A stretch of DNA of 64,000 nucleotides. Source: Oscillibacter sp. GTDB taxonomy: Bacteria; Bacillota; Clostridia; Oscillospirales; Oscillospiraceae. A program made the translations under genes and the position numbers. The DNA is taken from NCBI GenBank assembly GCA_014799845.1, contig JAAVHF010000050.1, forward strand, positions 1,935 through 65,934, written 5' to 3'. Position 1 is the stretch's first letter; each line of letters opens with the position of its first letter. A model generated the notes under the pieces. That model searched no databases. It saw only the letters and a program-made list of their open reading frames with translations, and was not told the origin of the DNA. Below are positions 32,536-41,739 of this stretch, piece by piece.

Positions 32536-33315
32536 TTAAAGAAATCGGTAATGCTGCAATGCCCGTTGTATGCCATCCCGATCTGGAGCAGGCGCAACAT
32601 ATTCCGCGATTTCTTTCAGCGGATCAAATCCATTTTCCATAGCAATCCCATGGGGTACAGCCGCAAGCATGTCCATATCGTTGTATCCATCACCAAAAGC
32701 GTAGGCATTTTCCGCATCTATACCAAAATATCGCAGGCACCAGCCAATCGCCACTGATTTTCCTGCCTTTTTACTGATAAGATTGCAGAGATAGGGGTGG
32801 GACCAGTTAGTGACATACTCCTCCAGCATCCCGGCAAAAAGCGGCTGTTCCTTCTCGGTGATGTACAGGCAGGCCTGATAAACCGGATCCGCGGCCTCGA
32901 AACCCGGCTTGACCAAAGGAATATCTCCCTGAAAATCCTGCCAGACTGTCCGCACACGATTATTTACCCCACTGATAACCAATCCTTGAAAATTATAGCC
33001 GCCATAGACGATATCCCGCTCTTTTGCCCGGTTAAAAAGCGCCTGCGTATCCAAATCCGGCAGGCGCCGCTCAAACACGAGCTTTCCCTGATGATAGATA
33101 ATCTGCCCGTTCAGCAGACAGACGGTATCCGGCAGGCAAACAAATTCCGATTGGAACAACGGCAGGGATTCGTTCCCTCTTCCCGAAATCAGTACGACAA
33201 CGTGTCCCTGCCGTTTCAGCGTCTCCAACGATTCCAGCGCGCTGGGTGGAATCCGCTTGCTCTGGTGGGAATACAGCGTGTTGTCAAAATCGAAAAAGAA
33301 TATACTTTTAGCCAT
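32536..33315 (-). CDS. Cof-type HAD-IIB phosphatase
   Basis: Motifs: FFFDFDNTLY (DxD), ISGRG, FGDGYNDMDML. The start is set at MAKSIFFF (ATG 33315) because the longer ORF would run through the upstream terminator hairpin. Confidence 0.85.
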   Translation of the reverse strand: MAKSIFFFDFDNTLYSHQSKRIPPSALESLETLKRQGHVVVLISGRGNESLPLFQSEFVCLPDTVCLLNGQIIYHQGKLVFERRLPDLDTQALFNRAKERDIVYGGYNFQGLVISGVNNRVRTVWQDFQGDIPLVKPGFEAADPVYQACLYITEKEQPLFAGMLEEYVTNWSHPYLCNLISKKAGKSVAIGWCLRYFGIDAENAYAFGDGYNDMDMLAAVPHGIAMENGFDPLKEIAEYVAPAPDRDGIQRALQHYRFL

Positions 33316-33331
33316 ATCATTCTCTCCAAAA

Positions 33332-33367
33332 ATGCAGGGGAATATATGCAATTATATTCCCCTGCAT
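33332..33367 (-). terminator. rho-independent terminator or attenuator between the SBP and HAD genes
   Basis: It has a 15-bp stem (atgcaggggaatata / tatattcccctgcat) and a 6-nt loop. On the minus strand it is followed by TTTTT. Confidence 0.65.
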
Positions 33368-33377
33368 GGTATTCCAC

Positions 33378-34754
33378 TTATTTTACCTGCGCAACGGCGT
33401 CAGCGATGGCGGAATCAATGTTCTGGCCGCCGATGATGACAGCCTTCCACATGCTGCCGGCCGCCGCGGCCAGAGAAGCCGTTACATCCGTCATGGCCTC
33501 GTAGGTCATGTAATCCGCCATGTCCATTGCCGCCCTGATCTCCAGCGCGGTGTAATAGGTTTTGCTTCCGTCGTTGGGCGTGTCCAAGAAGACCTTGTAC
33601 TCCGCGTTGTTCTCCATGGTGCTGGTGATGGGTAGGTTGCCGGTGGCGATCAGCCACTCCGCGTTCTGGTCGTCGCGGCTGAGGAACTTGATGAGCAGCC
33701 ACGCGGCTACCCGTTCCTCCTCGCTGGCGTTGGAGAAGATGCAGTAGTCCTCTCCTCTGGTAAAGACGACCTTATGGGAGGCGTCCTTCTGCGGCAGGGG
33801 CGCGATGCCGACCTCGAACAGCTCCTGGCCCTTCTCCGGATCAGGAATGGTGTACTGGGCGCCGGCAGCAGAACCAACATACATATAGCATTCTTTATTT
33901 GCAAAACCGTTGCTGGAGTAGTTGCCGCCATTGGAGCTGGGCAGATCGGAGGGCATGGTGAAATAGCCCGCGTCGTAGTTTTCCTTATAGAACCGGAGGG
34001 CTTCTCTGGACGCGTCGTTATCAATGGACACCGCGCCTTCATCATCAATATACGGACTGCCCCACTGCATGCTCAGCAGGTGGAAAGCCCCCTCGCCGTA
34101 GGCGACGTCATAGCTGAAGCCCGGCACGCCGGTGTCCTCCCTGATCTGCCTGCTGTAAGCGGCCACCTCATCCCAGGTGGCGGGAGCGTCCCAACCCTTG
34201 GAATCGAAGTAGGTCTTGTTGTAGAACAGGACCTCGGTTGTCTTTTTGTTGGTAGGGAAGCCATACATGGTGCCTTCACCGCCAAAGCTCTGGGCCTCGG
34301 CGATAAAGTTCTGCAGAAAGGCCGCCCGTTCCTCCGCGGTAAAGCCCACTTGGGCGTCCTCATAGTAAGGAGCCAGGTCGATGATGGCGCCGCTGTCTAT
34401 ATACTCTTTAAAATAAGTGGGATTGATGTTGGACAGCGTAGGGGTGGACTTGGAGACGATATTCTGAGTAAGCTTGTCCATCAGATCGGTAACGGGTCCC
34501 TGATTCTGGAAGTCCACATGGATGTTGGGGTACTCCTCCTGAAAGGCGTTCACAATGGCCTCCAGGTAGGGGAAATTGGCCGCGCCGGTGCCGGTCCAGA
34601 AGGAGATATTGACCTCCTCCTTGTCCACCAGCACCTTCGTGATAGCCGAAGAGGCGTCCTGGCTGTCAGCGCTGGGTTTTTCGCCGCCGCACCCGCTGAC
34701 GATCAGGGAAAGGCACATGCACAGAGCAAGCATCATGGCAAAGGGTCGTTTCAT
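33378..34754 (-). CDS. CUT1-family extracellular solute-binding lipoprotein
   Basis: The lipobox is LSLIVSGCGG after MKRPFAMML (ATG 34754). It has the size and composition of UgpB/MalE-like binding proteins. Confidence 0.8.
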   Translation of the reverse strand: MKRPFAMMLALCMCLSLIVSGCGGEKPSADSQDASSAITKVLVDKEEVNISFWTGTGAANFPYLEAIVNAFQEEYPNIHVDFQNQGPVTDLMDKLTQNIVSKSTPTLSNINPTYFKEYIDSGAIIDLAPYYEDAQVGFTAEERAAFLQNFIAEAQSFGGEGTMYGFPTNKKTTEVLFYNKTYFDSKGWDAPATWDEVAAYSRQIREDTGVPGFSYDVAYGEGAFHLLSMQWGSPYIDDEGAVSIDNDASREALRFYKENYDAGYFTMPSDLPSSNGGNYSSNGFANKECYMYVGSAAGAQYTIPDPEKGQELFEVGIAPLPQKDASHKVVFTRGEDYCIFSNASEEERVAAWLLIKFLSRDDQNAEWLIATGNLPITSTMENNAEYKVFLDTPNDGSKTYYTALEIRAAMDMADYMTYEAMTDVTASLAAAAGSMWKAVIIGGQNIDSAIADAVAQVK

Positions 34755-34801
34755 TTTCTGTTCCTCCATTCCTTTTTTGCACAAAACTTGTTTGGGGACC
34801 G

Positions 34802-40537: not shown

Positions 40538-40615
40538 GAAATTCCTCCCAGTACACCAATAAAAGTCTTACCTTTCGCATCCATATGCAAAGGCCGATTC
40601 TGTGTTGCTGGTTGT

Positions 40616-40644
40616 ATTATAAAGGCGGAATACAAATCTGTCAA
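40616..40644 (-). promoter_or_regulatory. consensus sigma-70 promoter of the phosphoesterase/ABC operon
   Basis: The minus strand reads TTGACA, exactly 17 nt, TATAAT. It lies about 75 nt upstream of the IMPase-family start. Confidence 0.6.
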
Positions 40645-40675
40645 CAATTTTTAACTAAATTTTTACTTAATATCT

Positions 40676-40689
40676 GTTTTGTACAAAAC
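40676..40689. promoter_or_regulatory. perfect 14-bp palindrome GTTTTGTACAAAAC (candidate operator for the adjacent LacI-family regulator)
   Basis: It is self-complementary. It lies between the LacI gene stop (40786) and the promoter, about 32 nt upstream of the -35. Confidence 0.35.
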
Positions 40690-40785
40690 GGAAAGAAAAA
40701 AACTCACAAAATGCACAAATCCCCGTCATTCAGGCAGAGGCGGCTGCGCATAGTCTGCCGCTTTGCCGGAATAACGGGGATGTTG

Positions 40786-41739
40786 TCAGTCTTTGATTAA
40801 AAGCTTGGGCGTAATCACGGTGGTAATGGTTTCGGTCCTGCCGTAGAGCTGCTCCAGCAGCATTTGGATTGCCTTTTTCCATAAGATATTGGGGTATACC
40901 TTTAAAATCGCGTATTGGCCCTCCGGGAGCTGTACCGACTGCACATCCTGATAGATGAGCAGCCGCACGTCTTTTCCGCTGTCAATTCCCGCCTCCTTCA
41001 ACGCTTCCAGCACACCGGCCGCGATAATATCGGACCCGATAATGATTGCCTCCGGATTGTTTTTCTGTGCAATCATCTCCTGCATGATGTGATAACCGGC
41101 GGCCTTGCTGAAAGCCCCCACCTGAATCTGGGAGGGCCGGTACTTACCCAGTCTTTTGATCAGAGCGGTGGCATTTTCCTCTCTCCGCAGGCCGATCATA
41201 TATCCGTTGCCCTGGTAAAAACCTCCGATATACCCGATGCTGTCCGCGTCCGCAATGTAGGGCAGCGCCCGTTCCCATGCGCGGTCCAGGTCCACCTGGA
41301 TACAATCGTTATCCGTACTTCTCGTGCTGCCATTTATAAAAGTAATGTATCGGGTGGACTGCAGCAGTACAGATACTTCGTTGTCCGTCAGCTCGCCAAA
41401 GGCAAGAATCCCATCAACGTCCGCCAATTCCCCCTGTCTCATACGGATATACTCTATTTTTTGTCCCGGTGCGGCCGACTCAGAGAAGAACTTCAAAGCG
41501 TTCAAATTCTCATCCTGTTCAGGATTTACAATAACCTTCCAATCTGCAACGCCGATTTTCAGTGTGCTTTCCAACTGCTTCCTTCGACGGGGAGGCATAT
41601 ATCCCAATTCATACGCAGTTTCAAAAATCACCCGCTTTGTTTCTTCACTAACCGCAAGGGTTTCATCATTATTTAAAACACGGGAAATCGTTGTTGCGGA
41701 AACACCGGTTCTTTTTGAAATATCCTTCAATGTTGCCAT
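40786..41739 (-). CDS. LacI-family transcriptional regulator
   Basis: The HTH is [25 protein letters not shown], and a sugar-binding fold follows. The start is at MATLKD (ATG 41739). Confidence 0.85.

Follow-up and report, generated by a model that had tools for sequence, protein, structure and literature searches.

A conserved CUT1 importer operon with cytoplasmic phosphoesterases in Oscillibacter sp. and its possible role in the uptake and intracellular dephosphorylation of RNA-derived nucleotides

On a 64,000-nucleotide stretch of DNA from Oscillibacter sp. (GenBank assembly GCA_014799845.1, contig JAAVHF010000050.1, positions 1,935 to 65,934 of the forward strand; hereafter the window), eight genes on the minus strand encode a LacI-family regulator, an ATP-binding cassette (ABC) importer of the CUT1 type, and a set of phosphoesterases comprising an inositol monophosphatase (IMPase)-family enzyme, a fusion of a 2H domain with a metallophosphatase/5'-nucleotidase, and a HAD-IIB phosphatase (Table 1). 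A first-pass annotation had named this gene content, and profile searches with Pfam and NCBIfam models, the NCBIfam scores being judged against model cutoffs, recovered every gene as named; only the start codons of the binding-protein gene (now 34754, giving 458 aa) and of the HAD gene (now 33315) were mended. For comparison, gene maps were assembled from contig look-ups and from a scan that took a single genome for each GTDB species and was mapped with tblastn, and yielded ~35 distinct loci with an orthologous binding protein (48-79% identity), designated here by L-numbers. In kind, the cassette is an operon for substrate utilisation with a CUT1 importer at its centre, and it is best read as a putative self-contained operon for organophosphate uptake and intracellular dephosphorylation.

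Table 1. Genes and transcription signals of the cassette, in window coordinates
Feature	Position	Strand	Details
LacI-family repressor gene	40786..41739	minus	~317 aa from ATG; listed open reading frame begins at GTG 41748
Hairpins and T-run 3' of the LacI gene	40690..40775	minus	RNA fold free energy (dG) -24.1
Box A, AGTAAAAATTTAGTTAAA	40650..40667	minus	abuts the -35 of the operon promoter
Sigma-70 promoter, TTGACA-17-TATAAT	40616..40644	minus	sole 12/12 match in 32000-42500 (10.5 kb)
IMPase-family phosphomonoesterase gene	39755..40537	minus	PF00459 1.4e-56, 192.4 bits
2H::metallophosphatase/5'-nucleotidase fusion gene	37718..39745	minus	675 aa; domain profiles
ABC ATPase gene, UgpC/MsmK/MalK type, C-terminal TOBE_2	36582..37724	minus	start GTG 37724 or ATG 37712
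Permease 1 gene	35626..36588	minus	BPD_transp_1 1.2e-14; best NCBIfam match UgpA, 71.9 bits
Permease 2 gene	34802..35626	minus	BPD_transp_1 1e-16; best NCBIfam match UgpE, 127.5 bits
Lipoprotein substrate-binding protein gene (P0027), CUT1/cluster-D type	33378..34754	minus	458 aa; SBP_bac_8 4.7e-41
Hairpin between the binding-protein and HAD genes	33323..33367	minus	14-bp stem then U5; dG -24.5
HAD-IIB (Cof-type) phosphatase gene	32536..33315	minus	Hydrolase_3 1e-34

The perfect consensus promoter claimed in the first-pass annotation stands and lies ~79 nt 5' of the IMPase ATG. From the IMPase gene through the binding-protein gene the sequence is that of one operon, because the junctions are overlaps or short gaps with a ribosome-binding site: a 9-nt gap, overlaps of 4-7 nt, a 1-nt overlap in which the start codon of permease 2 overlaps the stop codon of permease 1 (TGATG), and a gap of ~45 nt with a ribosome-binding site. 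The co-transcription proposed earlier is thus backed by the overlapping junctions. The hairpins and T-run downstream of the LacI gene are probably its terminator, setting it apart from the operon promoter. The hairpin ahead of the HAD gene, called a leaky terminator in the first-pass annotation, may either attenuate transcription as a terminator or stabilise the mRNA; it was seen only in the window and in its closest relative, L013 (dG -37), and there is none in L016, L004, L007 or L038, where the HAD gene follows directly. Attenuation at this site is a lineage-specific candidate only. As read from the sequence, the binding protein alone among the operon products carries an export signal (a lipobox), and the four hydrolase domains are cytoplasmic. 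The claims that the hydrolases have no signal peptide and that the unit holds no glycoside hydrolase, kinase or isomerase both held, the hydrolase N-termini being free of any hydrophobic leader.

All traits of a CUT1 system (TC 3.A.1.1) are present, namely a lipoprotein binding protein, two BPD_transp_1 permeases and a MalK/MsmK/UgpC-type ATPase with a TOBE domain. The ATPase matched ABC_tran (2.1e-33) and TOBE_2 (3.9e-07), with UgpC as its best NCBIfam match (329.5 bits); its ABC_tran match covers 164 residues against a 137-position profile, which implies an insertion of ~25 residues that falls after the Q-loop region and ahead of the signature motif. The binding protein has the lipobox LIVSG/C and also matched SBP_bac_1 (2.1e-30), and its AlphaFold2 model (predicted local distance difference test, pLDDT, 89.9) has a fold that matches cluster-D binding proteins. 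Its top match was the dinucleotide-binding protein of T. thermophilus (PDB 7C0F series), by sequence (5e-13) as well as by fold (1.5e-26); the UgpB proteins of Mycobacterium tuberculosis and E. coli were among the close fold matches. Although Ugp models were the nearest for the ATPase and both permeases, none of the Ugp equivalog cutoffs was reached (UgpB 34.2 vs 411 bits, UgpA 71.9 vs 335, UgpE 127.5 vs 297, UgpC 329.5 vs 432).

In the 675-residue fusion, residues 1-175 form a 2H/LigT domain (TIGR02258, 80.8 bits, above the cutoff of 65.7) and residues 180-675 a binuclear metallophosphatase/5'-nucleotidase (Metallophos at 184-403, 5_nucleotid_C at 498-632, 8.6e-24). The 2H catalytic motifs H37-I-T and H120-I-T are kept in all fused homologues, and the aromatic residue of HxTxxF is kept in motif 1 (HITLHY) as Tyr42 (HxTxxY). 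The metallophosphatase motifs DFH190-192, GDN, GNHD, H367 and H400-F-H are conserved in all homologues. A Foldseek search with the AlphaFold2 model of the fusion (pLDDT 90) returned 5'-nucleotidases at the top, led by T. thermophilus 2z1a (6.9e-40) and UshA (1e-37), with c4898 in complex with uridine or cytidine, CD73, NadN and B. subtilis YunD among the further matches and CpdB absent from the top 50. In line with this, the module scored 116 bits with UshA vs 30 bits with CpdB, and its match to YfkN falls within the 5'-nucleotidase half of that protein (NF006934 positions 629-1090, 257.9 bits). The metallophosphatase/5'-nucleotidase fusion named in the first-pass annotation therefore stands, and its metallophosphatase module is UshA/5'-nucleotidase-like, not CpdB-like. 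Of the UshA-family traits, the metal motifs and the C-terminal substrate-binding domain are present, whereas the secreted or wall-anchored location is lacking; the N-terminus is the 2H domain itself (MELFVAIGLEKPS...), with neither a signal peptide nor an LPXTG motif. The IMPase carries VDPIDGTTNF and PWDHNAA (DPIDGT, WDHNAA, as read from the sequence), has no hydrophobic N-terminal leader and is cytoplasmic; its nearest solved structures are the S. aureus and human IMPases, and IMPases accept 2'-AMP. The HAD enzyme, likewise cytoplasmic, has the nucleophile motif DFDNT (FDFDNTLY) and scored above the cutoff with TIGR01484 (61.6 vs 41.8 bits) and just under it with the Cof model TIGR00099 (125.9 vs 137).

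The cassette is spread over three phyla, Bacillota, Spirochaetota and Chloroflexota. Among Bacillota it occurs in Oscillospiraceae, Christensenellaceae, other Eubacteriales, Defluviitaleaceae, at least seven Paenibacillus species and Cohnella, and beyond them in Sphaerochaetaceae/Spirochaetaceae and Flexilinea/Anaerolineaceae; the nearest relative of the window cassette, with 79% identity, is that of Candidatus Pelethomonas. Few fusion proteins of this kind exist (~15 clusters at 90% identity and, unfused, two further relatives), and the binding-protein family is wider, with ~90 clusters at 48-94% identity. For a Lactobacillus psittaci relative (P0119), the contigs were too short for the neighbours to be read. 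In sufficiently flanked loci the 5'-nucleotidase gene adjoins the ABC genes everywhere but in L026, the HAD gene is present everywhere but in L030, and the 2H gene, counted in ~30 of the ~35 loci, is absent solely from two Anaerolineaceae loci and L096. Where the 2H and 5'-nucleotidase genes are unfused (L007, L008, Paenibacillus, Cohnella) they are adjacent and in unchanged order. In L012, L024, L033, L036, L096 and L097 the HAD gene lies right next to the binding-protein gene, and in L006 it lies between the genes for permease 2 and the binding protein. The flanks, by comparison, vary from locus to locus; in the window they consist of an IS110 transposase fragment and of loci for lacto-N-biose phosphorylase and for GH32/PfkB. 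By gene content, then, the core consists of the 5'-nucleotidase, 2H, four ABC and HAD genes, and the gene maps mark the cassette as a conserved unit, not a chance neighbourhood. This retention of phosphoesterases beside the ABC genes of orthologous loci, the neighbourhood check that the first-pass annotation had called for, supports the earlier proposal of an importer with cytoplasmic phosphoesterases that would take up an organophosphate and dephosphorylate it stepwise.

Around this core, accessory genes come and go. The IMPase gene is found in ~15 of the ~35 loci, and in 13 an orthologue of the LacI gene stands next to the cassette. Seven loci have a gene for an MgtC-family membrane protein inside or beside the cassette (L004 17286-17981, L006 15926-16618, L016 3392-4123, L017, L020, L028 and L096 2963-3655); in Christensenellaceae it stands between the LacI and IMPase genes, and the window cassette is without it. 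Four Spirochaete loci (L018 4411-5142, L035, L036 and L097 4467-5192) have in the IMPase position a YcdX-like PHP phosphatase gene (NF006702, 262.7 bits), which looks like a non-orthologous replacement of the phosphomonoesterase. We considered this PHP gene as a pAp phosphatase of the TrpH type and rejected that assignment; the product is YcdX-like, and no specific substrate can be inferred from it. Several Paenibacillus cassettes lack the ATPase gene (L026 7540-12258, L027, L032 and L039), and L026 also lacks the 5'-nucleotidase gene. Many Firmicute CUT1 systems use a shared MsmK-type ATPase, and by analogy the ATPase-less cassettes may rely on one encoded elsewhere.

Several independent lines suggest that the importer carries nucleotides, starting with genes that vary among the loci. 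Five Paenibacillus/Cohnella cassettes have an extra downstream gene for a leaderless CpdB-like 2',3'-cyclic-nucleotide 2'-phosphodiesterase/3'-nucleotidase (NF006938, 257-293 bits, vs 128-142 for UshA) and therefore encode both YfkN-like halves in addition to 2H and HAD, all of them intracellular. In L096, a variant that begins with a uridine phosphorylase gene, that gene (3885-4676; TIGR01718, 346.5 bits, above the cutoff of 280.3) overlaps the IMPase gene. An adenosine deaminase gene follows HAD-MgtC in L004 (TIGR01430, 323.7 bits, cutoff 216.6), and an NT5C gene lies upstream of the cassette in L012.

The nearest paralogous ABC clade points in the same direction. Its permeases, ATPases and binding proteins are 36-46%, 51-57% and 26-32% identical to those of the window cassette, compared with just 24-25% for the permeases of the two other CUT1 systems in the window, and its binding proteins share 28 of 77 family-invariant residues with the window family. 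Directly 3' of the binding-protein gene, loci L041, L042, L044 and L095 of this sister clade carry a gene for a lipoprotein with a staphylococcal nuclease (SNase) domain, and L095 adds genes for Endonuclease_1, SurE, two DHH/DHHA1 (NrnA-like) proteins, thymidine kinase and an NT5C-guanylate kinase fusion. These loci, judged by their genes, are unmistakably nucleic-acid scavenging loci. The Endonuclease_1 protein bears Big_2 domains, and a membrane protein of the RDD type and a surface protein of very large size are further neighbours; their hosts are uncultured Bacilli and Oscillospiraceae, and the ATPase of L095 (502 aa) has a long Lys/Glu-rich tail. Mycoplasma P48, the nucleoside-binding lipoprotein of a nucleoside ABC transporter, was set aside as not relevant, since we take it to belong to a different family, of the PnrA/Bmp type. 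The layout of the sister-clade loci does match that of the Mycoplasma SNase-ABC operons, which have been proposed to import nucleic-acid precursors (PMC3585158).

The CpdB-like genes, the uridine phosphorylase and adenosine deaminase genes and the nuclease-linked sister clade together narrow the substrate to the RNA-derived option among those listed in the first-pass annotation. 2',3'-Cyclic phosphates are produced by RNA cleavage only, and 2'- and 3'-nucleotides enter nucleotide pools only after dephosphorylation, which would explain why the importer travels with several esterases. With moderate confidence we therefore propose that the substrates are RNA-derived 2',3'-cyclic, 2'-, 3'- and 5'-nucleotides or short oligonucleotides, possibly including dinucleotides, which would then be dephosphorylated in the cytoplasm. 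The substrate class, the order of the enzyme steps and the role of LacI and Box A are what we infer from sequence comparison. In this scheme the lipoprotein would capture the nucleotide outside the cell, and the Ugp-like permease pair with its UgpC/MsmK-type ATPase would import it with the phosphate still on. The 2H domain, if it acts like ThpR, which converts RNA>p to a 2'-phosphate and has a base-stacking aromatic residue and an essential Arg130 (PMC4201822), would open 2',3'-cyclic phosphates to the 2'-phosphate. The fused UshA-like 5'-nucleotidase would take off 5'-phosphates and may cleave diesters, and the IMPase and HAD-IIB enzymes would clear the remaining 2'/3'-monoesters. Nucleosides and inorganic phosphate would be the end products, and the whole would amount to a cytoplasmic counterpart, coupled to an importer, of the secreted, trifunctional and phosphate-starvation-induced YfkN (PMC4744853). 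Further points in favour are that the permeases and ATPase score best with Ugp, the CUT1 member for organophosphates, that one of the 5'-nucleotidases sharing the fold of the fusion was crystallised with uridine, that a dinucleotide is the ligand of the nearest solved binding protein, and that Pho-box-like arrays sit at three Paenibacillus cassette promoters.

Several observations weigh against this proposal. The T. thermophilus protein was crystallised with uridylyl-3'-5'-phospho-guanosine (PMC12718374), but the likeness of the window binding protein to it is generic (~20-25% identity): V, N and T stand in the window protein where the T. thermophilus protein has its ligand residues Y56, F79 and N81, the latter protein scores higher against unrelated CUT1 binding proteins than against the window clade, and its margin in the fold search is small, with 7bvt (6.5e-25) and M. 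tuberculosis UgpB within one to three orders of magnitude. On these grounds it was rejected as an orthologue; a tblastn search against plasmids for its genomic context gave 30%-identical paralogues only. The second 2H motif reads HITLSY (HxTxxY/F), without the Arg on which ThpR depends; that position is held by Tyr or Phe in most homologues and by Arg in none. The window IMPase resembles canonical inositol monophosphatases, not CysQ, and the nearest solved structure to the HAD enzyme is the hexose-/sugar-phosphate phosphatase BT4131. L096 lacks the 2H gene and has a gene for a phosphodiesterase of the glycerophosphodiester phosphodiesterase (GDPD) family (12269-12991) after HAD. No nuclease or RNase gene was found in the cassette or the 64-kb window when SNase, Endonuclease_1, DHH and SurE were looked for, and none of these four recurs among the cassettes of orthologous loci. 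LacI regulators and CUT1 systems, moreover, mostly serve sugars, and the removal of 5'-phosphates in the cytoplasm looks wasteful unless it serves catabolism or phosphate scavenging.

Some of these same observations would suit the uptake of glycerophosphodiesters or inositol phosphates, such as glycerophosphoinositol or inositol 1,2-cyclic phosphate from membrane lipids, a reading that would assign the opening of the cyclic phosphate to the 2H domain and the release of inositol to the IMPase. The permeases and ATPase are after all nearest to UgpA, UgpE and UgpC, the M. tuberculosis and E. coli UgpB are close folds of the binding protein, the IMPase is nearest to true inositol monophosphatases, and L096 has its GDPD gene. 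The inositol and glycerophosphoinositol options of the first-pass annotation are nevertheless weakened because the IMPase is an accessory that the Spirochaetes replace with the YcdX-like phosphatase, GDPD occurs in one locus only, and inositol or glycerol catabolic genes are in none of the loci. Such a substrate would also have no need of the 5'-nucleotidase, the most conserved enzyme, and would leave the CpdB-like genes, uridine phosphorylase and adenosine deaminase unaccounted for, while the Ugp cutoffs are all missed widely; we regard it as unlikely. Pyrophosphate-linked conjugates (UDP- or ADP-sugars, CDP-alcohols, NAD(P), FAD, ADP-ribose) would instead make use of the UshA-like enzyme to split the pyrophosphate and of the HAD and IMPase enzymes to strip phosphate from the resulting sugar-phosphate, FMN or 2'-phosphate fragments. 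The fusion is close in fold to UshA and NadN, UshA is described in PMC10454023 as hydrolysing UDP-sugars and CDP-alcohols, the HAD enzyme is like the BT4131 sugar-phosphate phosphatase and weakly like riboflavin-pathway phosphatases, a LacI regulator would fit a sugar-like effector, and L008 has NADAR and adenine deaminase genes upstream. This substrate class is improbable all the same, for it does not explain the near-universal 2H genes and the CpdB-like 2',3'-cyclic phosphodiesterase/3'-nucleotidase genes, and such conjugates are scarce outside cells.

We give little credence to a role in the uptake and destruction of cyclic di- or oligonucleotide signals or of 2'-5'-linked oligonucleotides. 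Certain 2H enzymes are 2',5'-phosphodiesterases (PMC4161237), two homologues gave weak AKAP7-type Pfam matches, and PMC10454023 reports cleavage of cyclic dinucleotides by CpdB-type enzymes; but the window module is UshA-like, not CpdB-like, no locus links the cassette to defence or signalling genes, and a distribution among plant-biomass and gut saprophytes together with nucleoside-catabolic accessory genes fits nutrition better. It is more doubtful still that the importer is an ordinary oligosaccharide CUT1 system and the phosphatase genes unrelated neighbours. LacI with CUT1 is typical sugar-locus architecture and the window is rich in sugar loci (GH32 with PfkB, lacto-N-biose phosphorylase), yet the phosphoesterase genes accompany the ABC genes in three phyla while the flanks vary, the gene overlaps and the fusion speak for a functional unit, and no glycoside hydrolase recurs in the cassette.

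Control of the cassette appears to differ between lineages. The window LacI protein has both features of its family, the HTH_LacI domain (PF00356, 2e-12) and a periplasmic-binding-protein-like effector domain (Peripla_BP_3, PF13377, 9.7e-11); its nearest NCBIfam model was EbgR, at 137.7 bits far under the cutoff of 330. The adjacent LacI gene probably represses the operon, as the first-pass annotation had supposed, and its best operator candidate is the 18-bp Box A beside the -35 (AGTAAAA-N3-5-AGTYAAA, window 40667-40650), which resembles an UP element and may be that instead, or both. In 1.74 Mb searched on both strands, Box A was found only at cassette promoters with an adjacent LacI gene (window, L001/L037, L006, L013, L016, L017, L020 and L028), and Spirochaete loci with a divergent LacI gene have a palindromic variant, AGTAAAAA(A)TTTTTACT. 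An imperfect inverted repeat in the 5' untranslated region of the operon, CCTTTGCAT-ATGG-ATGCGAAAGG (40568-40590, minus strand), was also tried as LacI operator and passed over in favour of Box A, being not conserved in L013, L001, L006 or L016; L013 has a different GC-rich repeat at that place, and other orthologues have none.

At cassette promoters without LacI a different element, Box B (TGG[CT]GTAAT[GT]T), lies directly 3' of the -10 and is followed by a variable hairpin (L008 8319-8329, L022 4798-4808, L023 4016-4026, L025 4670-4680, L026 7248-7258, L027 5125-5135, L032 5137-5147, L034 4625-4635 and L039 5104-5114; looser forms in L004, L038 and L007). Box B gave 18 matches in 3.5 Mb of strand vs ~3 expected; it may act as an operator at +1 or belong to a leader RNA. 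The cassette leaders gave no Rfam match at the gathering threshold or at E values up to 5, and on that result the idea of a riboswitch or other known leader RNA ahead of the cassettes was rejected. In L027, L032 and L039 the best Pho-box-like TTHACA x4 array of each 21-kb locus falls at the cassette promoter (~5050-5110, ~5062-5110 and ~5029-5080, respectively), with 3-5 TT(A/T/C)ACA-like hexamers that keep an 11-bp phase and end shortly before the -10. Arrays so placed are the usual layout of PhoP-activated promoters in B. subtilis, and we infer putative phosphate-starvation control of the cassette in Paenibacillus. The signal is weak in other Paenibacillus loci and in the window (15/24), where Pho boxes were rejected as not distinctive.

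Elsewhere in the window, ~1 kb upstream of the LacI gene there is an IS110-family transposase fragment (42762-43568, plus strand), which covers just positions 31-133 of the DEDD_Tnp_IS110 profile and is probably a decayed insertion sequence, because the remainder of its open reading frame is unrelated sequence. The two sugar loci that flank the cassette are unrelated to it: one (43864-50749) holds lacto-N-biose phosphorylase, a CUT1 transporter and what looks, by eye only, like a regulator gene of the AraC type, and in the other (21954-30044) GH32 and a PfkB kinase are accompanied by a large binding protein, two permeases and a second LacI. At 29999-32122 on the plus strand lie the genes of three proteins without a Pfam match.

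In the textbook account, bacteria dephosphorylate nucleotides extracellularly (UshA, CpdB, YfkN, PhoA) and then import nucleosides and phosphate separately. If our proposal is true, the cassette would represent a new route in which phosphorylated RNA fragments are imported and dephosphorylated privately inside the cell, so that both phosphorus and nucleosides would be captured without the release of public goods in gut, rumen and soil communities. We put at about even the chance that this is the first widely distributed family of intact-nucleotide ABC importers outside Mycoplasma, one serving a 'selfish' use of extracellular RNA under LacI control in gut Clostridia and Pho control in Paenibacillus. 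Full-text literature searches found no published description of the cassette, which does not prove that none exists. The proposal would also assign functions to a cytoplasmic 5'-nucleotidase clade and a 2H clade, perhaps along with the MgtC and YcdX-like proteins that go with them, and would add a nucleotide-handling branch to the 'carbohydrate' CUT1 family. The repressor, operator and very strong promoter would form a set usable as a genetic tool, and the culturable carriers in Paenibacillus (among them P. glycanilyticus, P. sepulcri and P. filicis) and Cohnella (C. lupini) make direct testing feasible.

Among known systems, UgpBAEC-UgpQ (E. coli; UgpB also in M. tuberculosis) offers the closest parallel on the transport side: it too is a CUT1 importer that carries a phosphorylated solute intact and hydrolyses the ester in the cytoplasm, and it provides the best NCBIfam matches for the window ATPase and both permeases. 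Ugp belongs to a phosphate-starvation regulon. The regulator of the cassette in the window lineage is a LacI protein, and where Ugp has a GDPD the cassette has 2H, 5'-nucleotidase, HAD and IMPase enzymes. The Mycoplasma SNase-ABC operons (MAG_5030-5070, mhp379) and the sister clade are alike in having 'sugar-type' ABC importers, proposed to serve nucleic-acid precursors (PMC3585158), but they include surface nucleases and salvage enzymes (NrnA-like, SurE, thymidine kinase, guanylate kinase) where the window cassette is nuclease-free and has 2H, 5'-nucleotidase, HAD and IMPase enzymes. The T. thermophilus U3G-binding protein of the 7C0F series shows that a cluster-D CUT1 protein can bind a 3'-5' dinucleotide; given its low identity and altered ligand contacts, it has no specific kinship to the window clade. 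With E. coli ThpR/LigT the fusion shares the two HxT motifs, a TIGR02258 score above cutoff and the aromatic residue of motif 1, kept as HxTxxY (PMC4201822), and it differs in lacking an Arg130 equivalent in motif 2 and in being joined to a 5'-nucleotidase within a transport operon. On the enzymatic side, YfkN of B. subtilis, like CpdB plus UshA of E. coli, combines cyclic-phosphate opening with 5'-nucleotidase activity, and in YfkN as in the cassette the two are physically joined; the window module corresponds to the 5'-nucleotidase half of YfkN and the Paenibacillus CpdB-like gene to the other half. Those enzymes do their work ahead of uptake, being secreted, wall-bound or periplasmic, whereas the cassette enzymes lack export signals, are encoded with an importer and would use as cyclic phosphodiesterase a non-homologous 2H domain, not a CpdB module, which makes the cassette by analogy a functional counterpart of YfkN and not a member of its family. 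Because the equivalog cutoffs are missed and the defining features are lacking, it belongs to neither the Ugp nor the YfkN family; by analogy, it works like a Ugp importer combined with an intracellular YfkN.

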